A DNA stretch of 31,552 nucleotides from an uncultured bacterium (GCA_964510165.1 CAZEBC010000016.1:1-31552); one strand, 5' to 3'. Shown: positions 5,295 to 30,618, counted from the stretch's first letter. Notes: a model not told the origin generated them from the sequence alone. Translations and numbers: made by a program.

Positions 5295-5304
5295 GATGAG
5301 CTCC

Positions 5305-5343: not shown

Positions 5344-5383
5344 ACCTCCGATACCATTGTGTCGTAAGAGCGGGACAGATATC

Positions 5384-5399: not shown

Positions 5400-5404
5400 G
5401 GCCC

Positions 5405-5683: not shown

Positions 5684-5839
5684 GTGGTTGTTCAATGTTG
5701 TGTATGCCTCAAAGTTCGAGACGGGAAGCGATGGACAAAGGTGACGAATCCGCAGGAAGTCATGCGCCACGCCTCGCACACGTATTGTCCCCGCTGCATG
5801 AAGCGGTCGCTGGAGTCGCTGAAGAAGTGCAGGACATGA
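5684..5839 (+). CDS. 51-aa Cys4 putative metal-binding microprotein
   Basis: GTG start 9 nt after GGAGG; MVVQCCVCLKVRDGKRW...SHTYCPRC matches the CxxCxKxR..W..SHxxCPxC module. Confidence 0.7.
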   Translation: MVVQCCVCLKVRDGKRWTKVTNPQEVMRHASHTYCPRCMKRSLESLKKCRT

Positions 5840-5873
5840 GGATTTAACCGTCCCCAATTCAACCGACGAACGG

Positions 5874-7334: not shown

Positions 7335-7367
7335 ATTGCAAAATTCCTTGTGAATCACAGCGTGATC

Positions 7368-7438
7368 AACCACCAACACACCAAGAACACCCGGCATGTT
7401 CCTTGGTGCCTCTCGGTGTTCTTTGTGCCTTGGTGGTT
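7368..7438. repeat. CACCAA(G)/CTTGGTG iterated inverted repeat
   Basis: Terminal AACCACCAA...TTGGTGGTT with internal units CACCAAG, GAACACC and mirrored CTTGGTG, GGTGTTC, CTTTGTG. Confidence 0.65.
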
Positions 7439-8633: not shown

Positions 8634-10906
8634 GCTGTCGCTCCCGCCATTGCGATCTGGATAAGCGCGAGCGCGTTCCGCTTGCCGTTTTCGCCGACTT
8701 CGAGTGACGGCCCGACGCATGACGGGCAGCCGCTCTCGCAGCCGCACTGAGAGATCAATTCGCGCGCGACCTCCAGAAGGTCCTCGTGCAACCGGAAAAT
8801 TTTTCGGCTGAAGCCGACGCCGCCCGGATAGTTGTCGTAGATGTAAATGGTGGGTCGCTGGTTGAATGGGGCGCGCACCATGCTGACGGACCGGATATCG
8901 TTCGGGTCGCACATGATATAGATAGGCGCGACATTGACGAGCACGTTCGACAGCGCCTTGAGTCCGCCGCCGAGGTCGGCCTCGCTGATGCCCGCGCTTT
9001 CGATCAGGTCGGGCCGGAAATCCATCCAGTACGACGTGGTGTGCATCTCCTGCTCGGGCAGGTGGATGCGTCCGCTGCCGATGTTCTCGTGAGTGTGGAA
9101 CTTTATCTTTTTGTACATGACGGGGAGCGTGGTGACGCTGACCTCGCCGTGGGCTTTTGTGCCGTGGGACAGGTCGGCGCACGCTTCGACGTCGAGCACC
9201 TTGATGTCGGTCTTGGACTCGGCGTCGGTGTAGTAGTCAACGTCGACCTCGCGCCCGTACGCCTTCTGATTCTCGAAATCGAACCTCTCAATCGTGTATT
9301 GACGGCTCTCGTGAATGTATATCGCGCCCTCGTAGACGATGAGGGGCGCGCTGTGCAGGTCAACCTCGCCGATAACCCGCGCGTTATCCGTTACATCAAT
9401 GATGACGACGTTCTCGGGCGATGCGCTGCGGAGGCTGACCTCCTCGGCGGGATAGACGTCGGCAGTCCAGTGCCAGCGCCCGTCCACGTGCCGCAGGATA
9501 TGGTGTTCCTCGAGGTATTTGAGGATTTCCTCGATCGAGTCGACCCCGAACGATTCGCCGTCGCGGAACGGCAGTTCGAACGCGGCGCATTTGATGTGGC
9601 TCATCAGGATTATGAGGTTGTTCGGGTCCACGATGCCGTTCTCGGGCGGCTGTGCGAAGAAGTAATCGGGATGGTTGATGAGGAACTGGTCGATGGGTGC
9701 GCTGCTCGCGACGAGCAGCGCCGCCGAGACCTTGTTGCGCCTGCCCGCCCGGCCCGCCTGCTGCCATGCGCTCGCGATAGTTCCCGGATAGCCGGCCATG
9801 ACGCTGACATCGAGTTCGCCGATGTCGATGCCGAGTTCAAGCGCGTTCGTGCTGACCACTGCCATGATGTCGCCGGAGCGAAGGCCGCGTTCGATCTCGC
9901 GCCGTTCGTTCGGCAGGTAGCCGCCCCGATAGCCGCGCACAAGCCGGTCCGATTTTCGCATCTTGCGAATCGCCTCTTTAAGGTAGGTGACGAGAATCTC
10001 AACCCTCAGGCGGCTGCGCGCGAAGACGATGGTCTGTATGTTCTTGTCGAGGAATTTCCTCGCGAGATAACTGGATTCCGAGACGACCGAGCGCCTGATT
10101 CCGAGCTGGGCGTTGACGACCGGGGGGTTGTAGAGAATGAAGTGCTTTCTACCTGAGGGCGCGCCGTTGTTGTCCACAAGGACCACCGGCTGCCCGATGA
10201 TTTTCTCGGCAAGCTCGGCGGGGTTTGCGATTGTGGCTGAGCAACATATGAATTGAGGCGAGGAACTGTAGAACTCGCACAGCCTCCTCAGGCGACGGAT
10301 CACATTGGCCACGTGACTGCCGAACACGCCACGATAATGATGCAGTTCGTCAATAACCACGTAACGCAGTTTCTCGAACAGCTTGACCCACTTCGTGTGA
10401 TGCGGCAGTATGCCCGTGTGGAGCATGTCGGGATTGGTGACCACGATGTGGCCCGAATGGCGGATGGCTTTACGGGCGGAGGAGGGCGTATCGCCGTCAT
10501 AGGTGTACGTGCGGATTTCCTCGCCCAGCGTGTCCACGAGCGCGTGCAGTTCGGCGACCTGGTCCTGTGAGAGCGCCTTGGTGGGGAACAGGTAGAGCGC
10601 CCGGGCATCATTGTCGCTGAGAAGCGTGTTGAGCACCGGCAGGTTGTAACAGAGGGTCTTGCCGGAGGCTGTCGGCGTGACAATGACGATGCTTTCGCCC
10701 GCATTCAGCCTTTCGAGCGAAGCCCGCTGGTGGGAGTAAAGCTTCTCAATTCCGCGCTTTTCAAGCGCCTGCCGGAGCCGGGGATGGACCCATTCAGGGA
10801 ATTCCTCGAGTAAGGCCTCGCGCGGCGGTATCTCGCGCCACTCGCTCACGCACTGCATGAAATTGCGGGAACTTCTGACGCTGTCAAGGACTTGGTCGAG
10901 GTTCAC
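8630..10906 (-). CDS. mrfA: DEAH-box helicase with DUF1998 (YprA/MrfA/Hrq1 family)
   Basis: PTASGKT, PTKAL, TNPDMLH, DELH, SAT, TNALELGIDIG, QQAGRAGR, C-terminal YDNYPGGVG and CGCESGCPSC. GTG 10906 follows GGGAGG. Confidence 0.93.
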   Translation of the reverse strand: MNLDQVLDSVRSSRNFMQCVSEWREIPPREALLEEFPEWVHPRLRQALEKRGIEKLYSHQRASLERLNAGESIVIVTPTASGKTLCYNLPVLNTLLSDNDARALYLFPTKALSQDQVAELHALVDTLGEEIRTYTYDGDTPSSARKAIRHSGHIVVTNPDMLHTGILPHHTKWVKLFEKLRYVVIDELHHYRGVFGSHVANVIRRLRRLCEFYSSSPQFICCSATIANPAELAEKIIGQPVVLVDNNGAPSGRKHFILYNPPVVNAQLGIRRSVVSESSYLARKFLDKNIQTIVFARSRLRVEILVTYLKEAIRKMRKSDRLVRGYRGGYLPNERREIERGLRSGDIMAVVSTNALELGIDIGELDVSVMAGYPGTIASAWQQAGRAGRRNKVSAALLVASSAPIDQFLINHPDYFFAQPPENGIVDPNNLIILMSHIKCAAFELPFRDGESFGVDSIEEILKYLEEHHILRHVDGRWHWTADVYPAEEVSLRSASPENVVIIDVTDNARVIGEVDLHSAPLIVYEGAIYIHESRQYTIERFDFENQKAYGREVDVDYYTDAESKTDIKVLDVEACADLSHGTKAHGEVSVTTLPVMYKKIKFHTHENIGSGRIHLPEQEMHTTSYWMDFRPDLIESAGISEADLGGGLKALSNVLVNVAPIYIMCDPNDIRSVSMVRAPFNQRPTIYIYDNYPGGVGFSRKIFRLHEDLLEVARELISQCGCESGCPSCVGPSLEVGENGKRNALALIQIAMAGATA

Positions 10907-10978
10907 CCGGTCGGCCTCCCAACGAAACAACACGCCTATATATGGTATCTGCGTTTCGGGTTCATACTTTGTATATTG

Positions 10979-11007
10979 ATTGTACCCCAAGGAATGAAAA
11001 GCGTCAA
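10979..11007 (-). promoter_or_regulatory. sigma70-type promoter of mrfAB
   Basis: TTGACG, 17 bp, TACAAT on the minus strand. The -35 contains the TGA stop of the upstream GT9 gene. Confidence 0.75.
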
Positions 11008-12035
11008 CGGGAATCTTGGGGTGCGTTGTCTCCCAGAACAACAGCCAATATGTCCCCGATTAAGTGGGTCATTTGTTGAACCGATATTGCCTCCAGGCAG
11101 ATTTGTCTCTCGCAACGGGTCATGATCTCGCGGTTGCATGGGGCGCAGTGGGCGACCCCGGCGACCACTCTCACCTTCAAACCGGATGGCGCCCAGACGA
11201 CGGGGTCGGTCGGCCCGAATATGGCGAGCGTTGGAATTCCTGTTAGCGCTGCCAGATGCGTCACGCCCGAGTCGTTGCCGATGTATGCGTCACACAGAGA
11301 CAGCACGGCGGCGAGCGAGCGGAGCGGCAGGTTTTCGGCGATTACGCAGCCGAGTTTCGCGGCAAGCGGCTTGAATCTGGTGGCGAGATGTTCGTCCGCC
11401 GGGCCAAGCATCAAGAGGACCTCGCACCCAAGATCGTCTTTCAGTGCGTGGATCAGGGTCTCAAACCTCTCTGCGGGCCAGCATTTTTTCCAGCTTCCGC
11501 TCCCCGGATGAGCTCCAACTATCGGGCGACCGCTCCGCCGGACGCTTCGCAGGAAATTTTGGGCCTGCCGGATTCCCTGGTCATCGAAGTTGAATAGCGG
11601 CCCGGAACTTGTCGCGACTGGGTTGTCCACGAGCGGAGCGATGGTTTCCATGAGATAGTGGCCGACATGAACCCGTCGGCCCGCGGGCGGGAATGGCGGG
11701 CGCACAAGGCAATTCTGAATTCCCATGCGCTCCAGATTGTGCTCGAGTGTTCTGGAAGGATCGGAAACATATGCAATCACTGTATCGAACGACGAGAAGA
11801 ATTCCACCTCGCGTCGAGGCAAGTTATCCGAACACTCAAAGAAAGGAACGAGCGACGCCCGGTCGGCCGATGATATCGCCTGCGCGATGCCCGGGCATGC
11901 AAGACTCAGGATTTCCGTTCGCCCAAGCAATTCAAGGTGCGAGCGCGGAATAAATTTCCTCATTACGGCCAGGGCGGGCAGGAGCAGGAGAAAATCGCCG
12001 AGCGAACCGCGATGGATTACGAGAATGCGCTTCAT
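11004..12035 (-). CDS. glycosyltransferase family 9 (ADP-heptose:LPS heptosyltransferase-like)
   Basis: RILVIHRGSLGD, HPGSG..KKCWP, GNDSGVTHLAA, AIFGPTDP, CAPC...C...C. Confidence 0.92.
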   Translation of the reverse strand: MKRILVIHRGSLGDFLLLLPALAVMRKFIPRSHLELLGRTEILSLACPGIAQAISSADRASLVPFFECSDNLPRREVEFFSSFDTVIAYVSDPSRTLEHNLERMGIQNCLVRPPFPPAGRRVHVGHYLMETIAPLVDNPVATSSGPLFNFDDQGIRQAQNFLRSVRRSGRPIVGAHPGSGSWKKCWPAERFETLIHALKDDLGCEVLLMLGPADEHLATRFKPLAAKLGCVIAENLPLRSLAAVLSLCDAYIGNDSGVTHLAALTGIPTLAIFGPTDPVVWAPSGLKVRVVAGVAHCAPCNREIMTRCERQICLEAISVQQMTHLIGDILAVVLGDNAPQDSR

Positions 12036-17125: not shown

Positions 17126-18514
17126 TCATGCGATCGAGTGCTGTTTCATCTTTCGCCACAGTGTGGTGCGGCTCATGCCGAGCATTCTGGCGGCCCGGGT
17201 TCGGTTGCCCGACGTGTCAGCGAGCGCATGTTCGATCACCTGTCGTTCCCTGTCGGCGTTGCTCCGGGCGTCGTGGCGGAGGAACCTCTTGACGGTCGGA
17301 CCAGGCTCGAAATCGTCGGACTTCCTGATCTCGACGGGCAATTCTTCCAGGCTAATCATGTCTCCCCGCGTGAGCACCATGGCGTGCTCGATGGCGTGTT
17401 CGAGTTCCCGGATATTGCCGGGCCAATCATAGCTCCACAGCGCGCTCATCGCATTTTCCTTTACGCCGCGTATGCGTTTACCCATCTTCTCATTGAGCCG
17501 TTCGATAATGTGGTTTATGAGAAGCGGCAAGTCGTCTTTTCGCTCCCTAAGCGGCGGCAGATAGATAGGGATGACGCGAAGCCGGTAGTAGAGGTCGGGC
17601 CGGAAATGGCCATGCTGGACGAGTTCGGCCAGGTTTCGGCTGGTGGCGGCGATGATCCTGACATCCACCTTGCGGGAGACGGTCTCGCCGACGCGCTCGA
17701 TCTCCTTTTCCTGAAGGACGCGCAGCATCTTAAGCTGGATGAACGGGCTGAAGTCGCCGACCTCATCGAGAAAGATGGTGCCGCCGTTGGCCGCCTCGAA
17801 GCGGCCCACTTTGTCATACAACGCGCCGGTAAACGAGCCTTTGGCGTGTCCGAACAGTTCGCTTTCGAGGAGCGTCTCGGCGAGGGCCGAGCAGTTCACC
17901 TTTATGAACGGCCCGTTTGCGCGATGGCTGTGATAATGGATAGCGTGGGCGACCAGTTCCTTCCCTGTGCCGCTTTCTCCATGAATGAGCACGGTCGAGT
18001 CGCTGTCAGCGGTCAGCAGGATACGATCATACACCTGCTGCATCAGATAGTTCTTGCCTATGATCCGGTTGAGCCGGTATCGTCCCTTTAGTTCCTGCTT
18101 GAGGGTGTGAATCTCGGTCACGTCGGCGATGCTGATGACCGCGCCAGCGGCCTCGTCGGCGTAGAGGCCGGTCAGGACTGTGCTCGTGATGTTGATGGTC
18201 CTGGGGCGCCCATCCCGCGTCGTTATCTCGAGTTCATAGTTCTCGATACGCTGGTTCTTGCGGATGGCCTCGACGATCCTTTCGGTGAGACGGTCTTCCT
18301 TGTGGGAAACAAGCACCTCATGAAGCGGCTTTTCCAAAGCTTCCTGAGCGGTGAAGCCGGTTATCCTCTCGGCCGACCTATTAAACTGCTGAATCCTGCC
18401 CGTCGGATCGACTGTGATAATGCCATCGTAGAGGCTGTCGAATATGGACCTCAGATTCTCGGCCAGCCTGAGGAAATAAGGCGAAATCTCCAGCGGAGGT
18501 TTTTCCTGGTGCAC
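17126..18514 (-). CDS. sigma54-dependent activator, PAS + AAA+ + Fis HTH
   Basis: PAS ([10 protein letters not shown]), [45 protein letters not shown]-terminal HTH. AGGAG RBS. Confidence 0.93.
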
Positions 18515-18641
18515 CGTGTATTGCTCCTGTTAAGTCCTTCATTCATGATAACATTCATAGCTTGCGAGTTGCAAGCGGAGCGTCCCACCCGGCGGTTGCG
18601 AGGTAAATGGAACCGCCTCTTCGCCTATAGCGCCAATTCGC

Positions 18642-18682
18642 AGTAATGATTATAGTTATGGTATTATGTGACATCAATCAGA
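18642..18682. promoter_or_regulatory. Fur/PerR-like box plus CRP/HcpR-like box upstream of the respiratory operon
   Basis: AGTAATGATTATAGTTATG (13/19 to GATAATGATAATCATTATC) at 18642-18660; TGTGA-CATCAA-TCAGA (9/10) at 18667-18682. Confidence 0.4.
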
Positions 18683-18765
18683 AGGCTTGACGGGTAAGGC
18701 TTGGGCGAGCCCCATCTTCGATTTCCGAAAAAAGCCCAAGCAGTGGAGTCTGTGGGAGGGCTCTG

Positions 18766-20076
18766 GTGGATTTCCCTGTTTTTGACGTGCCTCTGATCGG
18801 CGGTCGCCTGTTCATCGCGCTCGTGGGCGTGGTTCACGTGCTTATCAGCCACGGCTGCGCGGTGGGCGGTTCCCTCTTTCTTGTCCTGCTCGAATACAAA
18901 TCCATCAAGGAGAACGACGAGCGTCTCAACGAGTTGTGTTATCGCCTGACACGCTGGTTCTTCATCTTGACGACTTCTCTCGGAGCGCTTTCGGGTGTGG
19001 GCATCTGGTTCACGACCAACATGTTCTCGCCCGAGGGAATCGGGTCACTCCTCAGGATATTCTTTTGGCCGTGGTTTGTTGAGTGGAACGTTTTCATAGT
19101 GGAGCTGGCGCTGGTTGCGATCTACTATCTGTCCTGGCACAAGATGAAACCAGACAAGCACGTGAAGGTGGGCATTGCGTACTTCGTCGTCTCGTTTCAG
19201 ACGGTGGCGGTGATCGTCGGCATCCTGGGGTTTCAACTGACGCCGGGCAAGTGGACCGTGGACCGCGCCTTCTGGGACGGCTTCTTCAATCCGTCGTATT
19301 TTCCTCAACTGTTCAGCAGGACGGCGCTCGCGGGGCTGCTGGCCGCCGCATTTTCCCTGTTCATATTCGCATTCATGCGGAGCATGCAGGACGTGCGCAA
19401 GCCGTTTCTGCGATTCACGGGAGGATACCTGCTGGCGGTAAGCCCTGTCTATCTCTTTGCCACTGTGGGCTACTATCACATCATTCCGCAAAGGACCGAG
19501 GAATTCATCTCCGTGGCCCTGGTGACGCTCCAATTCCAGCGATATGTAGAGTGGAGCAAAGGCTTCTATTTTGCTATTGTAGGCTTCATGCTGCTTGCGG
19601 GCCTGCTCATGTTCTATGCGCGGAGAACATTCGGTGTGCTGGCCGTTCTCCCTATGCTGCTGATGATCCTCGCGGTCATTCAGTTCGAGCGAGTGCGCGA
19701 ATTCAGCCGGAAGCCATTCGTGATCAATGAATACATGTACAGCAACGGAAAACGTAAGGCAGAGGCGGCGTTCCTCTCTGAAGTCGGCGTGTCCAGGTTT
19801 GCCACATGGGCCTGGCGCGGGCTCGACCCCGTGAGTGAAACAGCTCTCGGAGAGGTCGTGTTCAGGGCGGACTGCATGGCCTGCCACGAACAGGTCGGTG
19901 TCAACGGGGTGTTTGCGAAACCCCTGGTCACTACCGAAGAAGCGGTCGTGAACTTTCTGAGCAACATGCAGTACACGCATCCGTTCATGCCCCCGTTCAT
20001 AGGAACCGAAAAGGAAAAGAAGGCCTTGGCGAAGTTTCTGGTCGAAGGAAAGAGAAAATGGTTGGAATCCCAATAG
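18766..20076 (+). CDS. CydA-like (cytochrome bd superfamily) membrane subunit without Q-loop, with C-terminal monoheme cytochrome c
   Basis: About 9 TM helices; HVLISH in TM1; WFVEWNVFIVE resembling the conserved Glu pair of CydA; ERVREFSRKPFVI resembling CydA E..RQPW; CMACH...MPP. GGGAGG RBS. Confidence 0.75.
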   Translation: MDFPVFDVPLIGGRLFIALVGVVHVLISHGCAVGGSLFLVLLEYKSIKENDERLNELCYRLTRWFFILTTSLGALSGVGIWFTTNMFSPEGIGSLLRIFFWPWFVEWNVFIVELALVAIYYLSWHKMKPDKHVKVGIAYFVVSFQTVAVIVGILGFQLTPGKWTVDRAFWDGFFNPSYFPQLFSRTALAGLLAAAFSLFIFAFMRSMQDVRKPFLRFTGGYLLAVSPVYLFATVGYYHIIPQRTEEFISVALVTLQFQRYVEWSKGFYFAIVGFMLLAGLLMFYARRTFGVLAVLPMLLMILAVIQFERVREFSRKPFVINEYMYSNGKRKAEAAFLSEVGVSRFATWAWRGLDPVSETALGEVVFRADCMACHEQVGVNGVFAKPLVTTEEAVVNFLSNMQYTHPFMPPFIGTEKEKKALAKFLVEGKRKWLESQ

Positions 20077-21935
20077 ACCTGCCGCTTCCGCTTCCCGGCC
20101 CGGAAGACGTGCTGAAGGTGTTGCTGGTAATCACGTTTATTATGCACATATTCTTTGTGGGGCTTATGTTGGGCGGCGCATATTGGGCGGTCATCTTCAA
20201 AATTCTCGGGAGGGATGACCCGTTTTACGAGCGGCTGGCGCGCGAAATAGACGCGACTGTAACCATCAACAAGAGCCTGGCCGTCGTGCTTGGGGTGGCG
20301 CCTCTGCTGCTGATCGGGTTGACGTACACCCGCTATTGGTACACCGCCAACGTGATGACCGCGCCTTTCTTTCTCTCAATCGTATGGGTTGTCGCCGCCG
20401 CGTTCCTCTTTCTGTTTGCTTACAAGTATTCATGGGACATGTTTGCGGACAGGTCGCTCGTCCATCTGTCGTTGGGACTGATCGCATGCGGGCTTTTGAC
20501 TTTGATCCCCCTGATCTTTCTCACGAACATAAACCTGATGTTGCTACCGTATCAATGGGACATGACCAAGGGTTTCGTCCAGGCGCTTCTAATGCCGAAT
20601 GTCCTGCCGAGATACCTGCACTTCCTGGTGGCCACCTTTGCGATGATCGGCTTCTTCGCCGCCGTCTGGTTCTGGTATCGGGGCAGGAATTCCGATGACC
20701 CGTTCTATCCCCGCGCGCAAAGAGTGGGACTGAAGTGGGCGCTGGTCGCGACCTTGTTGCAGGGCTTGGCCGGGCCGTTCTCGTTCATCACGCTCCCTGA
20801 GGGTTCATATTCGAACCAACTATTCATTCTGATAGGGTTTGCGATTGCGGCGGTTGCGGTCGTGTGCATCGTGCTGATTCGAGGATTGCAGAAAACGTCC
20901 GGCGGTCCGATCATCGCTTCGGCCATGCTGCTCGCGGCAGTCGCCGTTCTCATGAGCTTCATGCGGCACACGGTCAGGGAGAATCTTCTCCGAGAGCCGC
21001 ATCTTGTTGCGGAGGAGAGGACGCGCCGATATTTCGCCGACCTCTCTCAATTCCGGGAAGCCCAGGCCGCCGAGGTGGCAAAGCCGGAAACGGGAGAGGA
21101 ATTATTCAAGATATTCTGCGCGAGCTGTCACGCTTCCGACCGCGTGCTGGTGGGGCCTTCGCTCGAGTACATGAGAGACAAGTACGAGGGGAAGCCTGAG
21201 AAGATGATCGAGTTTGTCCTCCAGCCATCCAAAGTCAATCCAGACCTGCCTGCAATGCCGCCTCCGAGCATAACCCGCCAGCAGGCTGAGAAGATCGTGG
21301 ATCATATCCTGCGGGAAGCCGAAGAGAAACCGAAACCGCAAAAGAAAGAGGAAGAGAAAAAAGAAGCGAAGCCCAGTCTGGCCGGGCAGGAATTATTTCA
21401 GAAGCATTGCGCGATGTGCCACGCCGAAAAAAAGACGCTCGTGGGGCCGCCTCTCGAATACATGAGGGATAAATACAAGAGCAAGCCCGAGGAGATGATC
21501 AAGTTTGTGCTCAAACCGACCAAGGTGAATCCGGACCTGCCGCCGATGCCGCCTCCCGGCACATCCGAGGAGGAGACCGAGAAGGTCGTGCACTACATCC
21601 TCGGAGGCGCGGACAACTCGGGCCGAAAGGATAACGAGGAATCCGATGAGAATCCCGAGGGCGAGGAGGAAGGCAAAGAAGTGGACCGCAAGCCGCATCC
21701 GGGTGGACCATTGTTCCAGAAATACTGCTCGATGTGTCACGAACAGGATAAGGTGAAGATCGGGCCGCCGGTTGAGCACATTGTCGAGAAATACAAGGAC
21801 AAGCCTGAGGAGATGGTTAAGTTTGTGCTGAACCCGAAGAAGGTAGACCCCAAGATGCCTCCGATGCCGAAGCTATCGGTGAAGGAAGAGGAAGTCCGGA
21901 AGATAGTTGACTACATTCTCGGCGAGGGGAAGTAG
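20058..21935 (+). CDS. second CydA-like polytopic membrane subunit with three tandem class I cytochrome c domains
   Basis: About 8-9 TM with HIFFVG, LGVAPLL, RYLHF, MRHTVRE; then CASCH, CAMCH, CSMCH, each followed by GP and a distal MP. Overlaps the upstream gene by 19 nt. Confidence 0.75.
   Translation: MVGIPIDLPLPLPGPEDVLKVLLVITFIMHIFFVGLMLGGAYWAVIFKILGRDDPFYERLAREIDATVTINKSLAVVLGVAPLLLIGLTYTRYWYTANVMTAPFFLSIVWVVAAAFLFLFAYKYSWDMFADRSLVHLSLGLIACGLLTLIPLIFLTNINLMLLPYQWDMTKGFVQALLMPNVLPRYLHFLVATFAMIGFFAAVWFWYRGRNSDDPFYPRAQRVGLKWALVATLLQGLAGPFSFITLPEGSYSNQLFILIGFAIAAVAVVCIVLIRGLQKTSGGPIIASAMLLAAVAVLMSFMRHTVRENLLREPHLVAEERTRRYFADLSQFREAQAAEVAKPETGEELFKIFCASCHASDRVLVGPSLEYMRDKYEGKPEKMIEFVLQPSKVNPDLPAMPPPSITRQQAEKIVDHILREAEEKPKPQKKEEEKKEAKPSLAGQELFQKHCAMCHAEKKTLVGPPLEYMRDKYKSKPEEMIKFVLKPTKVNPDLPPMPPPGTSEEETEKVVHYILGGADNSGRKDNEESDENPEGEEEGKEVDRKPHPGGPLFQKYCSMCHEQDKVKIGPPVEHIVEKYKDKPEEMVKFVLNPKKVDPKMPPMPKLSVKEEEVRKIVDYILGEGK
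21093..21920 (+). repeat. three 219-bp intragenic repeats encoding cytochrome c domains
   Basis: Units 21093-21311, 21384-21602 and 21702-21920 align without gaps (LF..C..CH....GP.....KY..KPE.M..FVL.P.KV.P..P.MP) and are separated by charged linkers. Confidence 0.85.
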
Positions 21936-22448
21936 GTGAAGAAACTCGCGCTGTACAGTGTGCTGGTGACAGGATGGTTTGCCGCGGCGTTGGCGGCCAC
22001 CGTGGGCTGGGGAATCACCCATAAGACCTCCATAAGGCCCGAGCAGCCGATCGAGTTCCCTCACCGTATCCATGTGAGCGATCTCGGCATGGGATGCCTG
22101 AACTGCCACCAGTACGCGGACAAATCGCTCCACGCGGGAATTCCCGACGCCACGTTCTGCATGCAATGCCACAGCGCCGTGGCGACGGATAAACCGGAAA
22201 TCCAGAAACTCACGCAGATGTATGAGCAGGGAAGGCCGGTCGATTGGGTCCGTATCTATCGGGTGAAGCCGCATGTCTATTTCAGCCACAAGCGGCACAT
22301 AAACAGCGGCGTGGAGTGCCAACGCTGTCACGGGCCGATCGAGTTCATGACCACGGCCCAGCGAGTGACCGACCTCGGCATGGGGTGGTGCCTGGACTGT
22401 CACAACACAAGAAACGCGCCGACCGACTGCAATACATGTCATAAATAG
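21936..22448 (+). CDS. actA: Alternative Complex III pentaheme cytochrome c subunit
   Basis: N-terminal TM, PEQPIEFPHRIH, five CxxCH (CLNCH, CMQCH, CQRCH, CLDCH, CNTCH), VYFSHKRH, MGWC. GTG directly follows the previous TAG. Confidence 0.9.
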   Translation: MKKLALYSVLVTGWFAAALAATVGWGITHKTSIRPEQPIEFPHRIHVSDLGMGCLNCHQYADKSLHAGIPDATFCMQCHSAVATDKPEIQKLTQMYEQGRPVDWVRIYRVKPHVYFSHKRHINSGVECQRCHGPIEFMTTAQRVTDLGMGWCLDCHNTRNAPTDCNTCHK

Positions 22449-22456
22449 GAAACGCC

Positions 22457-25360
22457 ATGAGCCAACGGAATATCAGCCGAAGACGGTTCCTTAAGACGAC
22501 CGGCTTGATGGGAGCGGGCGCGATGCTTCCGCTTGGGCGCTCGGGCGCCGGAATACTGTTTAGAGAGATGATCCCGTATGACCATTTCATCCCCGGCGTC
22601 TCGTACTGGCTTAATTCAACATGCGGGGAGTGCGCCGCCGGCTGCGGAGTCAAGGTGCGCGTGCGCGACGGAAACGCCACCAAGATAGAAGGAAACGAAA
22701 GACACCCGATCAATCACGGCGGACTCTGCGCACGCGGACAGTCCGCGTTGCAGGCGCTCTACAGTCCGGCCAGGGTGCGCCAGCCATTGCGTCGAACCGA
22801 TGCCGCAAAGCTCGAGCCGAGCACGTGGGACTCCGCGCTGAAGTTGATCGGAAAATCAGGAACCGAGGGAGAAGTTGCCGTCATAAGCTGTCAAATCACC
22901 GGCGCGCTTCGGGCCATGCTCGAAAAGCGAACAAATAACTTTGAGAGCCTGCGCATGCTGGTTCATGAGCCGCTGGATTTCGCGCCAATCACGGCGGCGA
23001 ACAAGGTGTGCTTCAACATCGAGGCTGTCCCGACCTACAGGCTTGAGAACGCGCGGACAATCGTCTCTTTCGGCGCCGACCTGTTCGAGACGTGGATATC
23101 GCCCGTCAGCAACGCGCACGGATTCAGCAGGACGCGACAGGTGGAGAGCGGCTCTATAGGCAGACTCATCCAGTTTGAATCGCACCTCTCGCTCTCCGGC
23201 ATGAATGCGGACGAACGATACCTGTGCGCACCCGGCTCCGAGACCTTGATCGCACTCGCAATCGCATCTTCCTTAGTTGAAGACGACGCTGCACTGGAAG
23301 ACCGGGACGCATGGCGGGCTGCGCTCATGCCATTCACGCTGGAACGCGCCGCCGAGGCGAGTGGGATACCTTCGCAGGTCATAAGCGCGACTGCCGAGAA
23401 GTTGCGGGCGCACAGGCCAAACCTGGCCGTCGCCGGCGGGCCGACGTCTCGCCACAGACACGCGACCGCGCTCCAAGTCACCGTGAACCTCATCAACTAT
23501 GCCCTTGACAATTATCGCCAGACTCTCGGGTTTGACCGCACGGAGAATGCTCCCACCGGCACGTACCGACAACTGCTTGAGTTAATCGAGGATATGGAGG
23601 CGGGCCGGATACAAGCACTCATCGTGCATGAAACCTCTCCCGCCTTTGCCTTGCCCGACCCCGCGCGCTGGAACGCGGCCCTGAAACGGGTCCCATTGAA
23701 GATTCAGTTGACCTCAGTGCGCGATGATTCAAGCGCCCAGTACGATCTTGTCCTGCCGGTTCATCACTGGCTTGAGCGCTGGGGGATGCTGGAGCCGCGC
23801 AGCGGCCTGAACAGCGTGCAGCAGCCAATGGTAACGCCGTTGTACGAATCACGCAATGCGGGACAAGTTCTCGCAGACGTTCTCGATGCCTGGACAGGCT
23901 CATCCGCCGGGTTGGACTACGAGAAATTCTTGGAGGGCGAATGGAACCGGATACAAGAGCACTTTGCGCCCGAATCCGAATTCGAGGATTTCTGGCGCGA
24001 TGTGTTGGAGGCGGGCGGCTACTGGTTGGACCCGGTGAGACGCAGAATATCGCTCGACGCCAGGGCCGCAGAGGTAATCGAATCCTTGCACACCGAAACC
24101 TTTGCCGCCGACAGGCATGTGCTCCTGCCGATCACGACCGTCCGCTATGGCGATGGTCGCCACACCGGCAGACCGTGGCTGAGCGAACTGCCGGACCCCG
24201 TTAGCACAATTGTGTGGGACAACCCGCTCCTCATCTCTCAGGCGACCGCAGATAAGTGGAGATGCCGCTCCCGCGACTTAGTGCGACTGAAATGCGGCGA
24301 CAGGACGCTTGAGGCGCCGGTCTATGTGCAACCCGGGACAAGCGATGCCGTTGTTGCAATCGCCCTGGGCGCGGCCAGCCCGGAGTATGCGCCGTACCAC
24401 GCCTCCCCCTCAGGCCACCCTCTGCATTGCCTCACCGGCAGGGTTGATGAGCGATCCGGATCGTTGGCGTGGCTGGGAACGCCTGTCGAGTTCGCGGGAG
24501 TCGTCGGGCGCGCTTCTCTCGCCCGCTTGCAGGGAGGCGACGACCAGACGGGCCGACACATCGCGCAGGCGGTCTCACTCGACCGATTGCATGAGTTGGA
24601 GGGATCGGAAGAGCACAAGACTGGGATAACCGACTTGTACCCCAAGCATGAGCATCCCAGGCATGACTGGTCGATGGTGATTGATCTTTCTCTGTGCGTC
24701 GGATGCGGAAACTGCGCGGTCGCATGCATGGCGGAGAACAACGTGTTTGTGGTAGGCAAGAAACTGTGCGCGATGGGGCGCGAACTCTCATGGTTGAGGA
24801 TCGAGAGGTTTCTGGACCATGGGCGGCCCGTCTTTCTGCCGATGCTGTGCCAGCATTGCGAGCACGCGCCATGCGAGACCGTCTGTCCCGTGTACGCGGC
24901 AGTTCATAACAGCGAAGGGCTGAACCTGCAGGTGTATAACCGATGCGTCGGAACCCGGTACTGTGCAAACAACTGTCCTTACAAGGTGCGCCGATTCGAC
25001 TGGTTCACCTACAAGGTTGATCCGCCGCTGGAGAGGCAATTCAACCCCGATGTGTATGTGAGGACTCGCGGCATCATGGAAAAGTGCACGTTTTGCGTCC
25101 ACCGAATCCGGGAACACACGGGAGACGCGAAGGACGGAAAGAGGGCGTTGCGCGACGGCGAGGTGGTCCCGGCCTGCGCGCAAAGTTGCCCGACCGGCGC
25201 AATCGTCTTCGGCGACCTGAATGATCCGGTGAGCCGCGTCTCCAAACTTTTCAATGACCACAGGGGCTATAGGATTTTCGAGGAACTGAACACGCAACCG
25301 TCAATCGTGTATCTCAAGCGGGTGCATCAGCCGGACGCAACCCCGATGACGGAGCTCTGA
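22457..25360 (+). CDS. actB: Alternative Complex III subunit B (Tat-exported molybdopterin-fold domain fused to Fe-S domain)
   Basis: SRRRFLK Tat motif, ELPDPVSTIVWDN, CVGCGNCAVAC, CQHCEHAPCETVCP, NRCVGTRYCANNCPYKVRRF, RGIMEKCTFC. Confidence 0.9.
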   Translation: MSQRNISRRRFLKTTGLMGAGAMLPLGRSGAGILFREMIPYDHFIPGVSYWLNSTCGECAAGCGVKVRVRDGNATKIEGNERHPINHGGLCARGQSALQALYSPARVRQPLRRTDAAKLEPSTWDSALKLIGKSGTEGEVAVISCQITGALRAMLEKRTNNFESLRMLVHEPLDFAPITAANKVCFNIEAVPTYRLENARTIVSFGADLFETWISPVSNAHGFSRTRQVESGSIGRLIQFESHLSLSGMNADERYLCAPGSETLIALAIASSLVEDDAALEDRDAWRAALMPFTLERAAEASGIPSQVISATAEKLRAHRPNLAVAGGPTSRHRHATALQVTVNLINYALDNYRQTLGFDRTENAPTGTYRQLLELIEDMEAGRIQALIVHETSPAFALPDPARWNAALKRVPLKIQLTSVRDDSSAQYDLVLPVHHWLERWGMLEPRSGLNSVQQPMVTPLYESRNAGQVLADVLDAWTGSSAGLDYEKFLEGEWNRIQEHFAPESEFEDFWRDVLEAGGYWLDPVRRRISLDARAAEVIESLHTETFAADRHVLLPITTVRYGDGRHTGRPWLSELPDPVSTIVWDNPLLISQATADKWRCRSRDLVRLKCGDRTLEAPVYVQPGTSDAVVAIALGAASPEYAPYHASPSGHPLHCLTGRVDERSGSLAWLGTPVEFAGVVGRASLARLQGGDDQTGRHIAQAVSLDRLHELEGSEEHKTGITDLYPKHEHPRHDWSMVIDLSLCVGCGNCAVACMAENNVFVVGKKLCAMGRELSWLRIERFLDHGRPVFLPMLCQHCEHAPCETVCPVYAAVHNSEGLNLQVYNRCVGTRYCANNCPYKVRRFDWFTYKVDPPLERQFNPDVYVRTRGIMEKCTFCVHRIREHTGDAKDGKRALRDGEVVPACAQSCPTGAIVFGDLNDPVSRVSKLFNDHRGYRIFEELNTQPSIVYLKRVHQPDATPMTEL

Positions 25361-25367
25361 GAAAACC

Positions 25368-26705
25368 ATGAAAGACGAACAAGGCGCCGTGACCGATTTC
25401 AAGTGGGTCGAGGATGTCGTTCTCGCTCCCATGCTTCGTCCCACGAAGCTCTATATCGCGTTTGTGGCGGTGAACGCGCTTTTCTTTCTGATCGGCGCCG
25501 CGTGTTACATCCAGCAATTGCGCATAGCGATAGGAGTGGCCGGCATCACGCACCCGGTGGGCTGGGGCGTCTACATCACGAACTTTGTGTTCTGGGTCGG
25601 GCTCGCGCATTCGGGCACGCTGATTTCGGCGATCCTGTACCTGTTCCGCGCGAAATGGCGCACGAGCATCAACCGGATCGCCGAGGCGATGACGGTGATC
25701 GCAATAATGATGGCCGGGCTTTTCCCCCTTGTGCACCTGGGGCGGGTATGGCTGGCCTATTATCTGCTCCCATATCCGAACTACCGCGAGTTGTGGCCCA
25801 ACTTTCGCAGTCCTCTCCTGTGGGACGTATTCGCCATAACGACGTATATGCTGGTCAGCATCATGTTCTTCTACGTGGGGCTGCTGCCGGACCTCGCGAC
25901 GGTGCGCGACCGCTCGAAGGGGTTGAGGAAGCTGGTCTACGGCATTTTATCGCTAGGCTGGCGCGGCGGCCACAGACAGTGGCGGCATCTCGAGGCGGCG
26001 TATCTCCTGCTCGCCGCTCTGGCGACTCCGCTCGTCATATCCGTCCACAGCGTTGTCAGTTGGGATTTCGCGGTTTCGGTCATCCCCGGATGGCACAGCA
26101 CTATCTTTGCGCCGTACTTCGTGGCGGGGGCTATCTTCTCCGGGTGCGCGATGATCGTGGTCGTCCTGCTTCCACTGCGCAGTTTCTTCCATCTTCAGAA
26201 CCTGATCGCGCCCCGCCATTTCGCGATGCTCGCCAAGATGATCCTGTTCATGAGCCTCATCATCACGTATTCCTATTTCGCGGAGTTTTTCATCGCCTGG
26301 TACACGGGCAACGTGTTCGAGAAGAGCAGTTTCTACCATCGGGCCTTCGGAATGCCGTACGCTCCTTTCTTCTGGGTGATGGTCTTCTGCAATTCGCTCC
26401 TCCCGCTCACGCTGTTCAGCGCGCGGCTGCGCGGCAAGCTCGGCTATGTGTATTTCGTATCCATCGCCGTGCTGATAGGAATGTATGTGGAGCGGTTTGT
26501 GATAATCGTTACCAGTCTGGCGCATGACTTCGACCCATACGCCTGGGGCATATACAAGCCCACCATGATCGAGATCGGCATCACGCTCGGCAGTTTCGGC
26601 CTCTTCTTCCTGATGTACGCCGGATTCGCGAAGCTGTTGCCGGTAGTGGCGATGGGCGAGGTCAAGGCAGATATCCTGCACGGAGAAAAAGTGGGTGAAG
26701 GATAA
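25368..26705 (+). CDS. actC: Alternative Complex III NrfD-family quinol-binding subunit
   Basis: WGVYITNFVFWVGLAHSGTLISAIL, HLGR, NFRSPLLWD, SVHSVVSWDF, PGWHSTIFAPYF. Confidence 0.93.
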   Translation: MKDEQGAVTDFKWVEDVVLAPMLRPTKLYIAFVAVNALFFLIGAACYIQQLRIAIGVAGITHPVGWGVYITNFVFWVGLAHSGTLISAILYLFRAKWRTSINRIAEAMTVIAIMMAGLFPLVHLGRVWLAYYLLPYPNYRELWPNFRSPLLWDVFAITTYMLVSIMFFYVGLLPDLATVRDRSKGLRKLVYGILSLGWRGGHRQWRHLEAAYLLLAALATPLVISVHSVVSWDFAVSVIPGWHSTIFAPYFVAGAIFSGCAMIVVVLLPLRSFFHLQNLIAPRHFAMLAKMILFMSLIITYSYFAEFFIAWYTGNVFEKSSFYHRAFGMPYAPFFWVMVFCNSLLPLTLFSARLRGKLGYVYFVSIAVLIGMYVERFVIIVTSLAHDFDPYAWGIYKPTMIEIGITLGSFGLFFLMYAGFAKLLPVVAMGEVKADILHGEKVGEG

Positions 26706-27231
26706 CACGCAGACATTGTTGGCCGTCTTCTCCGGCCCGCAGCCGCTTTATGAGGGAATCAAGGCCGCCAGGCGGCACGGCATTCACGCGAACAACCTTG
26801 AGGCGCTCAGCCCGGCGCCGCTTCCCGGACTTGACAAATTGATCGTCGAGCGGCCGAGCGCGGTCAGGTGGGCTACCCTGATCGGGTGCATCGCGGGCGG
26901 CCTGTTTGGCCTCTGGCTTCAATTCGCGACCTCGCTCGACTGGCCGTTGCGGGTCGGCGGCAAGCCAGTCGTCTCGCTGCCCGCGTTTGTGGTGATAGCG
27001 TTCGAGTTGACGATCCTGTTCGGCGCATTCGGGACGCTCGCAGGGCTGTTCACGGCGGCAAAACTGCCGCCCATATCGAAGAGCGTCTTTCATGAAGGAT
27101 GCTCGCAGAGTGATTTCGCGCTGCTGGTGAGGCATAAACCCTCGGACTATGCCACGCTCGAGGGACTGCTCAGGGAAGCGGGCGCGCGCGATGTCAGCAT
27201 CGCACGCCCGCGTTCAACCGTATTGGAATAG
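26695..27231 (+). CDS. actD: Alternative Complex III subunit D (DUF3341)
   Basis: WPLRVGGKP, AFVVIAFELTILF, two TM; position after actC. Confidence 0.9.
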   Translation: MKDNTQTLLAVFSGPQPLYEGIKAARRHGIHANNLEALSPAPLPGLDKLIVERPSAVRWATLIGCIAGGLFGLWLQFATSLDWPLRVGGKPVVSLPAFVVIAFELTILFGAFGTLAGLFTAAKLPPISKSVFHEGCSQSDFALLVRHKPSDYATLEGLLREAGARDVSIARPRSTVLE

Positions 27232-27253
27232 GGGCGCGCAACGTGCTGCGCCC
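27229..27253 (+). repeat. degenerate GTAG-type REP-like palindrome at the actD-actF junction
   Basis: TAGGGGCGCGCAACGTGCTGCGCCC, beginning at the actD stop codon. Confidence 0.5.
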
Positions 27254-27265
27254 GCTAGGGTGGTC

Positions 27266-28258
27266 ATGAACGACATCGGTCATCAGTTCTGGCAGGCGTA
27301 CCTGGTGAATTTCCTGTTCTGGTCGGCGCTGGCGCAGGGAAGCATCGCCTTCGCCGCCACGCTGAATATCACCCATGCGCAATGGGGCCGCCGCTACACC
27401 CGACTGGCCGGATGCTGTCTCGGTTTCCTGCCGGTATGTGTCGTGCTGTTCGCGATCCTCTTGCTCGGTCGTCACTCCATATTCCCCTGGATAACCCAGC
27501 CGATTCCGGAGAAAGCGCCCTACTTGAACGTGCCGTTCCTGGCGGCGCGCGAACTGGTTGGCCTGGCCGCGCTGGCGTTCATAAGCTGGAAGTTCCTGTC
27601 AGCCATGCGGACCGCGCGCGAGGGCGCCTCTCCGTGGGCCGTGATTCTGATTATGGCTTTCATGGTGGTGTACAGTTACATGGCATTCGACCTCGTGATG
27701 TCGTTGCAGCCGACATGGTACAGCACGCTTCTCGGGGCTCATTATGCCATAAGCTCGTACTACCTCGGCATGGCGGCCCTGTGTCTGGTGGGATGGTTTC
27801 GCGCCGGCGTGCCCAGGGACGACCGCCGAAAGATCAGCACCCTGATGTTCGGGTTTGCGCTGTTCTGGGTGTCCCTCTTGTGGAGCCAGTACATTGTGAT
27901 ATGGTACGGAGACATGCCGGCGGAGACCCTGTTTGTGTATCTTCGCTTTTATCGGATGCCGTGGAGCGCGGTGACATTGGCAGTGCTTGCGCTCGGATTC
28001 GTGTTTCCCTTTGCCGTGCTGATGCCGGCCCGCTCCAAGGTGATGGGCATCGTGACGCTTTTGGCCTCGGCCTCAATCGTCATCGGGCTGTTCCTCGAAA
28101 GGTACATGCTGCTCGTGCCGTCACTGAGTCCGGACAAGCTCGGTATCGGGTGGGTATACCTGCCGGTCACGGCCGCATTCGCCGCCCTGTTCGGCGTCTG
28201 CTTCACGGTCACCGCGCGGCGAATGAAACCGTTTGAACAGTCATCGGATGTCATCTGA
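27266..28258 (+). CDS. actF: Alternative Complex III subunit F (NrfD-like), apparently short at the N-terminus
   Basis: [54 protein letters not shown] 27266 preferred; the upstream in-frame extension is not hydrophobic. Confidence 0.82.
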
Positions 28259-28272
28259 AAGGAAACCATATT

Positions 28273-28434
28273 ATGCAGAAATACACGTGCACAGTGTGCG
28301 GTTATATTTATGACCCGGCCGAAGGCGATCCCGACAACGGCGTCGCCCCTGGAACCCCGTTTGAACAAATCCCCCAGAATTGGGTCTGTCCGCTGTGCGG
28401 GGTCGGGAAGGATTTCTTCGAGCCAACCGATTAG
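28273..28434 (+). CDS. rubredoxin (53 aa; absent from the ORF track)
   Basis: Hand translation [61 protein letters not shown]. Confidence 0.96.
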
Positions 28435-28454: not shown

Positions 28455-28595
28455 GTGGGGTGCAGCATGCTGCGCCCGTGCGTGATCGCTTTCCATCTAG
28501 CGCTCACGCGCCTCTGACGTTACGCTTGAAGTGTCGGCAAATGGTCGTCGAAGATGTTCCTTGGCGGCTTTCGTAGGGGCGCATGGCATGCGCCC
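28455..28595 (+). repeat. two GTRG-type REP-like palindromes
   Basis: GTGGGGTGCAGCATGCTGCGCCC (28455-28477) and GTAGGGGCGCATGGCATGCGCCC (28573-28595). Confidence 0.7.
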
Positions 28596-28633
28596 TTCGA
28601 AATGAGGCTGCTGGAATCAAGCAAGGAAAACTC

Positions 28634-30079
28634 ATGAAAACCAGGAACTCCAATCGGCGGATGCCAGCCACGCGAATCGAGAGAGACTCGCTCGGCAAGA
28701 AGGAGATACCCGCAGACGCCTATTACGGAGTGCAAACGGCGCGCGCGCTCGAAAACTTCCGCGCCAGCGGCCTCAGGCTGCCCGGCTCGATGCTGCAGGC
28801 ATACGCGATGATCAAGAAGGCTTCCGCCCTCGCAAATGAGGAGTTGGGCACGCTCGACAGCCGCCGGGCCAATGCAATCATATGGGCGTGTGACGAAGTC
28901 CTCAGCGAAAAGCATGACAACCAGTTCAAGCTCGATGCCTATCAGGCGGGCGCCGGCACCTCGTTCAACATGAACGTCAACGAGGTGATCGCCAACCTCG
29001 CCCTTGAACGACTGGGCCGGAAACGCGGCGACTACGAATATCTAAGCCCGAATGACCATGTCAATATGGCACAGTCCACAAACGACACGTTTCCGACCGC
29101 GATGCACGTGGCCGCGCTGTTGGAGTTGCCCGCTCTCGACGCCGCGCTCACCAAGCTCGCCTCCGCCCTCCGCGAAAAGGGAAAGCAGTTCCGAAAAGTC
29201 ATCAAGTCGGGACGCACCCATCTGCAAGACGCCGTCCCGATAACGCTCGGCCAGGAGTTCGACGCCATGGCCGAAGCGATCGAGGTGGCCCGCAAGGAAC
29301 TCGTGCGCCGGTCGGCGCTCCTGAACGATATCGCGCTCGGCGGCACGGCCGTCGGCACCGGCATGAATGCGCATCCGCGCTTTGCGCAGACGGTCGCCAG
29401 GCGTCTGAGCGAAGTTTCCGGCTTGAAGCTCAGGCCCGCCCGAAACCTCATTTATGCCGTGCAATGCCGGTATGCCGCCGCCTCCGTCTCGGGCGCGCTC
29501 CGCGACCTCTCCCTGGAGCTTATCCGCATCGCGAACGATTTGCGGCTCCTGAGTTCAGGGCCGACTACCGGCATCGCCGAGATAACACTGCCCCCAGTCC
29601 AGCCCGGCTCGTCCATCATGCCGGGCAAGGTCAACCCGGTGATGGCCGAATGTCTGGACATGATCTGCTTCCAGGTTATCGGGAACGACCTCGCCGTCGC
29701 ACTGGCGGTTCAGGCCGGCCAATTCGATTTGAACGTGATGATGCCGCTCATGGCGCTGAATATGATACAATCAATCCGGCTGCTCTCGAACTATCTGCCG
29801 GACTTCGCGGCGAAATGCGTCGAGGGCATCGTCGCCAATGAGGACCACTGCAAGCATTATTTCGAGCGCAGCGTCGGGCTCGCCACCGCGCTCAGCCCGT
29901 TCGTCGGATATCTCAACGCCGCTGAAATCGCCCACGAAGCCGCAAAGACGGGCGAGTCAGTCAAGGCGCTCGCCATACGAAAAGGAATAGTCACCGAAGG
30001 GGAGTTTGACAGAATCACCAACCCTCTGACAGTCACGATACCGGAAAATGAGAAACGAAAAGGAGTGAAAAGAAAATGA
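28634..30079 (+). CDS. aspA: aspartate ammonia-lyase / class II fumarase family
   Basis: RIERDSLG, YYGVQTARA, QAGAGTSFNMN, QSTND, GRTHLQDA, signature GSSIMPGKVNP. AspA versus FumC is not certain. Confidence 0.8.
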   Translation: MKTRNSNRRMPATRIERDSLGKKEIPADAYYGVQTARALENFRASGLRLPGSMLQAYAMIKKASALANEELGTLDSRRANAIIWACDEVLSEKHDNQFKLDAYQAGAGTSFNMNVNEVIANLALERLGRKRGDYEYLSPNDHVNMAQSTNDTFPTAMHVAALLELPALDAALTKLASALREKGKQFRKVIKSGRTHLQDAVPITLGQEFDAMAEAIEVARKELVRRSALLNDIALGGTAVGTGMNAHPRFAQTVARRLSEVSGLKLRPARNLIYAVQCRYAAASVSGALRDLSLELIRIANDLRLLSSGPTTGIAEITLPPVQPGSSIMPGKVNPVMAECLDMICFQVIGNDLAVALAVQAGQFDLNVMMPLMALNMIQSIRLLSNYLPDFAAKCVEGIVANEDHCKHYFERSVGLATALSPFVGYLNAAEIAHEAAKTGESVKALAIRKGIVTEGEFDRITNPLTVTIPENEKRKGVKRK

Positions 30080-30618
30080 CTGAAATGCCGGAAAAGATAC
30101 AGGATATAGTTAAGTTCGCGCTTCAGCTCGAACAGGACGGCCTCAAGATGTACCGCGAGTTCGCGGGCCAGTCAAAGGACCCGTTCGGCAAGAAAACCTT
30201 CGAGGGCCTCGCCGAGGACGAGCAGGAACATCTGGAACTCCTGCAGAGGGTCTATGACAAATGCGGCGTCAAGGAAGTCGAGGAAATAGTGGAACGCAGC
30301 AAGTACGAGCCTATACGGCAGCGCTTCAAGACCATCTTCCAGGAGGCCGGCGAGGAAGCCCGTCAGAGGACCTCGGCGGACCCAACCGACACAAACGCGA
30401 TGAAAGTGGCGCTCGACTTCGAGAAACGCGGCTACAACCTGTACAGCGAGGCTGAAAAGAAGGCCAAAGGCGACATGGAACGAACGGCCTTCAAACACCT
30501 CGCCCTTATGGAAAAGTACCATTTCGACCTGCTCCAGGAAACGCTCGAATACCTCGATGACACCGGCAATTGGCACATGAAAAACGAGCATTGGATGTTC
30601 GAGGGCGGCCAGATTTAG
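30076..30618 (+). CDS. ferritin-like (rubrerythrin-family) diiron protein without rubredoxin domain
   Basis: ALQLEQDG..Y, EDEQEH, ALDFEKRG..Y, MEKYH; ATGA overlap with the upstream stop. Confidence 0.85.
   Translation: MTEMPEKIQDIVKFALQLEQDGLKMYREFAGQSKDPFGKKTFEGLAEDEQEHLELLQRVYDKCGVKEVEEIVERSKYEPIRQRFKTIFQEAGEEARQRTSADPTDTNAMKVALDFEKRGYNLYSEAEKKAKGDMERTAFKHLALMEKYHFDLLQETLEYLDDTGNWHMKNEHWMFEGGQI

Follow-up and report, generated by a model that had tools for sequence, protein, structure and literature searches.

We analyzed a 31,552-nucleotide stretch of DNA from an uncultured bacterium (GCA_964510165.1 CAZEBC010000016.1:1-31552; this whole stretch is called the window here) in which eight co-oriented genes on the + strand (18766..28434) encode two cytochrome bd-like membrane proteins, the Alternative Complex III (ACIII) subunits and also a rubredoxin. 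By their published description, the membrane proteins are assigned to the OR-C1a and OR-C1b types of the cytochrome bd superfamily. The genes probably encode a two-step, copper-free respiratory branch in which electrons would pass from menaquinol through ACIII and the cytochromes c fused to the pair to OR-C1a/b and on to O2. An earlier note on this DNA had proposed a module of this kind, and the positions, spacing and CxxCH counts of the eight genes are as it gave them. It had also stated that the window holds no heme-copper oxidase gene; a Pfam scan of the window indeed finds none, nor any match to a CydB model.

The run is compact. It opens with the gene for OR-C1a (18766..20076, 436 aa), the likely catalytic subunit, which overlaps the OR-C1b gene (20058..21935, 625 aa) by 19 nt. 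The junction of OR-C1b with actA (21936..22448) is 0 nt. ActA is a membrane-anchored pentaheme cytochrome c without an extra monoheme domain. After gaps of 8 and 7 nt follow actB (22457..25360), encoding a Tat signal and fused B1 (molybdopterin-enzyme fold) and B2 (Fe-S) domains, and actC (25368..26705), encoding an NrfD-type quinol-binding subunit. The actC gene overlaps actD (26695..27231; PF11821, 137.8 bits) by 11 nt, and 34 nt further on lies actF (27266..28258) for a second NrfD-type subunit, a weak paralog of ActC with 58-65% orthologs in the same position. The longest actF open reading frame (ORF) begins at 27149, but the ATG at 27266 is the likely start because in seven relatives the match starts only at residue 39-40 of this longer frame. 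The rubredoxin gene (28273..28434, 53 aa; NF045768 above cut-off) is 14 nt downstream. CxxCH motifs number one in OR-C1a (C370), three in OR-C1b (C354, C451, C557) and five in ActA.

Both membrane proteins are predicted to have the CydA fold, as the earlier note had supposed, with ligand residues present in each. In each, the first ~230-240 residues match Pfam Cyt_bd_oxida_I above its cut-off. Each has eight hydrophobic segments, in agreement with the helices of the AlphaFold2 models (pLDDT 93.7 for OR-C1a and 92.2 for residues 1-421 of OR-C1b). Foldseek placed solved CydA chains at all top ten ranks for both models, and VIA-align of the OR-C1a model to CydA gave Z of 25.6-28.9. The two proteins are paralogous over their whole length (hhalign probability 99.7). 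Only about 15 residues lie between helices 6 and 7, so the long Q-loop is lacking, again as claimed. In OR-C1a the eight transmembrane (TM) helices are followed by one C-terminal class I cytochrome c (C370xxC373H374, M408). In OR-C1b they are followed by a long stalk helix and three c551/c552-type domains in tandem with charged linkers between them (about 21084-21320, 21375-21617 and 21693-21932).

Aligned to Geobacillus CydA (5DOQ_A), H24 of OR-C1a corresponds to His21 and E106/E113 to Glu101/Glu108, while E312, R315 and P317 fall on Glu378-Arg381-Pro383 in a weakly scoring stretch of the alignment. All six are conserved, as are H29, H132 and R185; by column counts H24 is found in 96 and H29 in 95 of 97 OR-C1a homologs, and E106, E113 and E312 in all 97. 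His29 is an extra His relative to canonical CydA. At the position of His186, which we take to be the heme b558 ligand, OR-C1a has Ser184 (Leu in 53/97 homologs) next to the invariant Arg185. By the same counts, the stretch between R216 and E308 has no charged residue and no His or Met that is conserved, and OR-C1a therefore has no quinol-site Lys/Glu. In OR-C1b, H30 and H188 are present in 115/115 sequences, M299, R303 and R307 are also invariant, and no conserved Glu occurs in the part matching the proton-channel glutamates. We placed H188 at the His186 position by way of OR-C1a (hhalign, then the 5DOQ_A alignment), because the OR-C1b profile aligned with the single CydA of the genome over 53 columns only. 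With H188 on OR-C1b and the equivalents of His21 and Glu378, the latter presumably the ligand of the catalytic-site heme, on OR-C1a, the predicted bd heme ligands are split between the two subunits.

The published OR-C1a/b proteins are adjacent CydA paralogs of eight TM helices each with a C-terminal CxxCH and no quinol site; His19 is in both subunits and the channel glutamates, with six residues between them, are in subunit a only (10.1101/2021.01.16.426971). The pair has each of these traits (fold, TM helices, CxxCH, His19, glutamates, adjacency) and differs in the three c domains of its OR-C1b. These domains share 36-47 identical residues of about 80 between copies. Among the eight relatives with the pair, an intact OR-C1b has one CxxCH in six and two in one; in the last, a split gene has one. 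The three-heme form thus looks like a recent, lineage-specific tandem expansion, with most relatives carrying one heme. Compared with canonical cytochrome bd (5DOQ, 6RKO, 7NKZ) and archaeal CydAA', the pair shares the CydA fold (Z up to 28.9) and, in OR-C1a, the equivalents of His21, Glu101, Glu108 and Glu378. It differs from canonical bd in having cytochromes c fused and in lacking what marks the quinol-oxidizing enzyme (qOR), namely a Q-loop site, His186/Met b558 ligands on CydA, and CydB; the His186 equivalent is on OR-C1b only. In the ESM Atlas, the only matches were CydA-cytochrome c clusters without a name. Complex prediction with OR-C1a, OR-C1b(3-420) and ActA(28-170) scored 0.00, which speaks neither for nor against binding.

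The other genes encode pentaheme ActA, ActB with B1 and B2, ActC, ActD and ActF. The best PDB matches of ActB are the four solved ActBs (352-417 bits), and ActC scores 412-435 bits against the four solved ActCs. ActC has the quinol-site residues H123, S148 and D153; in the Rhodothermus marinus protein we take Asp169 to be a further residue of this site. The R. marinus quinol site includes His139 and Ser164 (PMC8076601). Like the solved complexes (6F0K, 6BTM, 6LOD, 8K9E), the window thus encodes a pentaheme ActA, a fused ActB, an ActC with the His/Ser/Asp set, ActD and ActF. Unlike them, it has no ActE; no ActE-like match was found in the window or in seven loci of the same gene order. ActE carries the exit heme, and the solved B1 domains are without cofactor (PMC7439408). 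Since ACIII variants with subunit loss have been reported (PMC12342949), the lack of ActE marks a variant and not the canonical six-subunit form. A further difference is the neighbor, here a bd-superfamily enzyme and in the solved ACIIIs aa3/caa3 or auracyanin partners.

The B1 domain of ActB also contains an FS0-type motif (C56xxC59xxxC63...C91; 22622..22729) that is invariant in 7/7 family sequences and missing at the aligned positions of three solved ActBs in printed alignments. It is not a unique feature, as we had considered, because a matching pattern occurs in 106 of the 150 nearest ActB representatives (P0241-P0390). This points to a fifth Fe-S cluster in a large group of ActBs, one that is missing from the printed solved structures. 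At the putative Mo-ligand position, judged by eye, B1 has D or E and no invariant Cys/Ser/Asp.

The linkage of the pair to act genes is not peculiar to one genome, recurring in all eight pair-bearing relatives and, outside the family, in 14 of 80 metagenome loci. For both membrane proteins, the nearest homologs with a name carry the label Ca. Abyssubacteria (85% and 82%). SURF_5 and SURF_17 proteins are 54-67% identical to the pair, with some 65% matches under other phylum labels, and the source genome (G000; 4.17 Mb, 97% complete) appears to belong to the Ca. Abyssubacteria lineage. OR-C1a is encoded in 8/9 other family genomes, the lone miss being a 77% complete genome, and in all eight the order OR-C1a, OR-C1b, actA is kept with the genes adjacent. 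In five of the eight, the whole run through a ferritin-like gene is on one contig; in the other three, a contig break leaves actC-D-F on another contig. The pair and ActD occur in the same 9/11 genomes of the phylum. Rubredoxin follows actF in 7/8 family relatives but not in the distant loci L129 and L130. Contrary to the earlier note, which counted it in the respiratory module, rubredoxin probably lies outside the periplasmic chain, because it has no signal or membrane segment and is missing from these distant loci of the same order.

The metagenome set consists of the best 80 of 359 confirmed metagenome loci, and OR-C1a adjoins OR-C1b in 70 of them. The 14 loci with flanking act genes (10 distinct) show three layouts, one with the pair directly after the ACIII operon. 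L128-L131 have the same order as the window, and the FS0 motif is read in L128-L130. The complete same-order loci L129 and L130 encode no ActE. L138, L139-141, L155 and L192 encode an ACIII with fused ActD-E and a monoheme cytochrome, then the pair. In L198, two other genes separate ACIII from the pair; the genes are divergent in L132/133 and convergent in L190. In a FastTree tree of 145 OR-C1a rows, the same-order loci are in one clade (11 rows and one short locus, support 99). A tree of ActC (22 rows) groups the linked loci like the OR-C1a tree, which is no proof of co-evolution because kin share labels. The 80 loci from species genomes include just one with related genes, L006, where they are Qrc-like and lie about 3 kb off; 36 of 50 genomes tested from this set carry ActD elsewhere.

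We also examined which other oxidases are encoded. A dedicated O2-type heme-copper oxidase elsewhere in the source genome would have spoken against the proposal of the earlier note, and none was found; the COX1 matches are a qNOR (NorB domain, HIWVEGMFEFF) and a protein of 156 aa that scores below cut-off. Of the 10 family genomes, nine have the OR-C/ACIII module and five a canonical CydA. An O2-type heme-copper oxidase, a cbb3, is confirmed in one, G001. Four relatives (G005, G006, G007, G008; 91-98% complete) yielded no canonical CydA, and for COX1 they gave no match, weak matches or a single ORF the size of a qNOR; in G006 and G009, the long ORFs matching COX1 have qNOR size. G001 is the only family genome with cbb3 behind a second ACIII (contig C9, L217:6000-16200), which consists of actB with FS0, an actC-D fusion, actF and actA, followed by ccoN and ccoO. 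It is also the one with a split OR-C1b, where a 7-nt deletion shifts the frame (contig C53, L099:11419-12677, minus). This single case is possibly decay after replacement, or an assembly error. The source genome also encodes one gene of the futalosine pathway for menaquinone and four cytochrome c assembly genes.

In the reading we favor, ACIII would take electrons from menaquinol at the ActC site. By homology to the solved ACIIIs, they would cross the [3Fe-4S] cluster of ActB and then the five hemes of ActA. Without ActE, they would go from ActA to the class I cytochrome c domains that an OR-C1a/b heterodimer carries, fused, in the periplasm and enter its membrane domain at OR-C1b, at a b558-like site with H188 and M299 or H304 as candidate second ligand. 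H30 of OR-C1b would be an interface His. OR-C1a, judging from its conserved residues H24, E106, E113 and E312, would hold the O2-reduction site and the proton channel, with O2 reduced to water by cytoplasmic protons. Of the earlier note's path from quinol through ACIII and tethered cytochromes c to a bd-like enzyme, the fold, ligands, linkage and oxidase inventory all fit; the direction, the electron path itself, the heme content and the acceptor are what we infer. Its physiological role is probably to scavenge O2 or to support microaerobic respiration in a bacterium that is mainly anaerobic.

Several findings weigh against this reading. The source genome encodes canonical cydAB co-oriented behind genes for a PerR/Fur-like regulator and rubrerythrin (contig C49, 19338-22945), so that O2 removal does not hinge on the module. 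With no His186 equivalent in OR-C1a (Ser184), the heme set differs from that of canonical bd. An ActE/CcoP-like monoheme gene lies downstream in the cbb3 cluster of G001, which weakens the parallel with the window and with it the idea that an ActE-less ACIII also feeds cbb3 in that genome. The act-linked locus L140 has an A-family oxidase about 2.6 kb downstream. A sigma-70-like promoter (TTGnnn-17-TATAAT) 131-171 nt upstream of OR-C1a in 7/8 relatives speaks for the reading, but this pattern is unmatched in the window itself. The literature examined yielded no report of a purified OR-C enzyme, so that O2 reduction itself is deduced.

The remaining points against it favor co-regulated partners that are not dedicated to each other: OR-C would still be an O2 reductase but fed from a shared periplasmic cytochrome c pool, with ACIII feeding this pool and other sinks. 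A monoheme cytochrome c encoded on its own (contig C49, 10069-10656) has a His-rich tail, is weakly ActE-like (24-30%), has orthologs in 9/9 relatives and could be the real carrier, a shuttle or an ActE substitute. Three cytochrome b genes (PF00033) in the source genome lie near 5- to 9-heme cytochromes (C109:3390-9000, C59:4480-8970, C12:29657-33730), and these multiheme proteins could make up the pool instead. When loci are limited to those with 3 kb or more on each side, act neighbors are found at 0/53 in species genomes and 8/21 in metagenomes; since most OR-C loci are without nearby act genes, OR-C needs no linked ACIII, and the linkage requires four changes on the OR-C1a tree. A search for a recurrent redox partner gave none that was trustworthy among the neighboring ORFs of 82 distant OR-C loci, the clustering being dominated by spurious frames. 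We nevertheless consider a pool unlikely, given the 0-nt OR-C1b/actA junction, the tight adjacency in 8/8 relatives and the identical order in the distant L129 and L130. The like grouping of linked loci in the ActC and OR-C1a trees points the same way, though kinship alone could explain it.

Two further alternatives change the direction or the end of the path. An ACIII-type complex could run in reverse like Qrc, reducing menaquinone from cytochromes c, with the pair as a conduit for electrons or protons and not an oxidase, an idea once put forward for OR-N proteins. QrcABCD has related A/B/C modules, the FS0 motif is common to the window's ActB and the two QrcB paralogs of the source genome, ActE is lacking and the top NCBIfam matches, none of which reaches its cut-off, are QrcA/B/C. 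For bd-like proteins, a role resembling that of complex III has been proposed (PMC3578206). Such flow is nonetheless quite improbable, as Qrc has separate QrcB and QrcC and no ActD or ActF, whereas the window's ActB is fused, ActD and ActF are present, and ActC is near the solved ActCs and far from QrcD. In addition, an FS0-bearing ActB stands ahead of the cbb3 oxidase in G001, and E106, E113 and E312 of OR-C1a are invariant. The fused domains are c551/c552-type His/Met cytochromes, which are usually high-potential. If instead the path is as we propose but ends in NO or H2O2, the altered ligand set, with the extra H29 and no His186 equivalent in subunit a, would be accounted for, and the downstream rubredoxin and rubrerythrin/ferritin-like genes would suggest stress defense. 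NO reductases have a non-heme iron site of three His, and no conserved three-His set resembling it was seen in the pair. The lineage has been described as largely anaerobic, with cytochrome c oxidase not found (PMC6121073), which would suit these acceptors, but a separate qNOR is encoded in the source genome, and O2 reductase activity has been measured for the related CydAA', whose hemes are all of type b (10.1101/2021.01.16.426971). We regard this ending as very improbable. The earlier note had left the acceptor as O2 or possibly NO; O2 is favored, and the case for NO is weakened by the qNOR and by the retained bd-type proton-channel and heme residues.

Related arrangements have been published. 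ACIII genes are followed by an OR-N5 bd-like pair in almost all ACIII-bearing Nitrospirales (PMC12342949), and in TO_3 of Ca. Manganitrophus an ACIII occurs with two bd-like proteins of clade V (10.1101/2021.11.15.468770). As in the window, a CydA pair without a quinol site adjoins act genes and is read as the terminal acceptor. The Nitrospirales OR-N5 type has 10 TM helices (10.1101/2021.01.16.426971) and lies downstream of actABCDE with a split ActB and no ActF, whereas the OR-C pair in the window lies upstream, has eight TM helices and fused hemes c, and is joined by a fused ActB and ActF with no ActE. We found no OR-C and ACIII operon in the literature searched, including the text portions available of PMC3578206, PMC8076601, PMC6121073, PMC10839748, PMC10732223, PMC5826079, PMC6349859, PMC10100899 and 10.1101/2020.07.02.185504. 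In the main text examined, the bd-superfamily paper (10.1101/2021.01.16.426971) gives no ACIII linkage for OR-C and uses "alternative complex" once, in its introduction; its figure and supplements on operon context may show such a layout. The earlier note could not confirm that the arrangement is undescribed. Both component families are known, the pair having a name and ACIII with an OR-N5 pair being published, while the OR-C version, an ActE-less FS0-bearing ACIII and the split ligand set were not found described.

The co-oriented run extends on the + strand past rubredoxin with an aspartate ammonia-lyase family gene (28583..30079, start probably 28634; PRK12273, 634 bits with a cut-off of 510) and, overlapping it by 4 nt, a gene for a rubrerythrin/ferritin-like protein (30076..30618; PF02915). 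Both are syntenic in the five relatives whose contig extends there. Terminator (9 vs 11.2) and promoter (8 vs 5.4) scans were at chance level. We rejected a PerR/Fur box upstream of OR-C1a: the best match to the consensus (10/14) is equalled at 358 forward-strand sites in the genome. The conserved AT-rich element of the relatives reads better as a -10 hexamer than as a PerR/Fur box. A PAS-domain sigma-54 activator (17126-18514, minus) is divergent from the operon in the window. In three relatives its ortholog lies past the operon's other end, which reflects a local rearrangement, and a role as operon regulator is not evident.

Elsewhere in the window, positions 90-4410 encode an Fe-S protein, an aldehyde:ferredoxin oxidoreductase, MoaD/ThiS, an unannotated 157-aa ORF and a rubrerythrin. 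A 227-aa sulfite reductase-like 4Fe-4S protein (4674-5357, minus) is AsrC/DsrB-like but below cut-offs, and an MrfA-type DEAH helicase with a Zn domain is followed by an RNase H-like/TPR protein (7437-11041, minus). The source genome has two dsrA copies with equal scores about 14 kb apart (contig C8, 7853-10059 and 22141-24347) and dsrB-like matches. Only 2/11 phylum genomes have dsrA, the other likewise in two copies (G006, contig C5). At the C109 cytochrome b locus, an 888-aa protein that has nine hemes and several class I domains is followed by a DMSO reductase type II subunit; the C59 locus holds a type II chaperone. In the metagenome loci with fused ActD-E (L138, L139-141, L155, L192), ActD is joined to an ActE-like heme domain and a gene for a 300-340-aa monoheme cytochrome c lies between actF and OR-C1a. 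The flanks of the L130 operon (2586-7602, 18302-20343) encode Nqr/Rnf-like membrane proteins, a cytochrome b5-like protein, a pentaheme cytochrome and a nickel superoxide dismutase.

OR-C is widespread, and the idea of a cytochrome c donor has so far rested on its fused CxxCH motifs. An operon that also encodes a quinol:cytochrome c oxidoreductase, is conserved within one family and recurs in other lineages provides the donor that was missing, and it is a self-contained system in which OR-C function could be expressed and assayed. Pfam-based surveys miss the pair, the CydA model failing to detect it in G001 and scoring it below cut-off in G005. The ligand split across CydA paralogs bears on bd evolution, and FS0 in a large, structurally unsampled ActB group bears on the "dead-end" Fe-S clusters of ACIII. 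Ca. Abyssubacteria have been described as without cytochrome c oxidases (PMC6121073); if OR-C reduces O2, genomes scored in this way would have a complete, copper-free complex III-IV branch. It is possible, though on balance doubtful, that the two complexes form a stable copper-free complex III-IV supercomplex of a type not seen so far, in which an ActE-less, FS0-bearing ACIII would pass electrons from ActA heme 5 directly to the tethered c domains and the b hemes would be shared between the CydA paralogs, with electron entry at OR-C1b and the O2 site on OR-C1a. Were this so, the family would respire or remove O2 mainly in this way, and the pair would be the first member of the bd superfamily to act as a cytochrome c oxidase within a chain that translocates protons.

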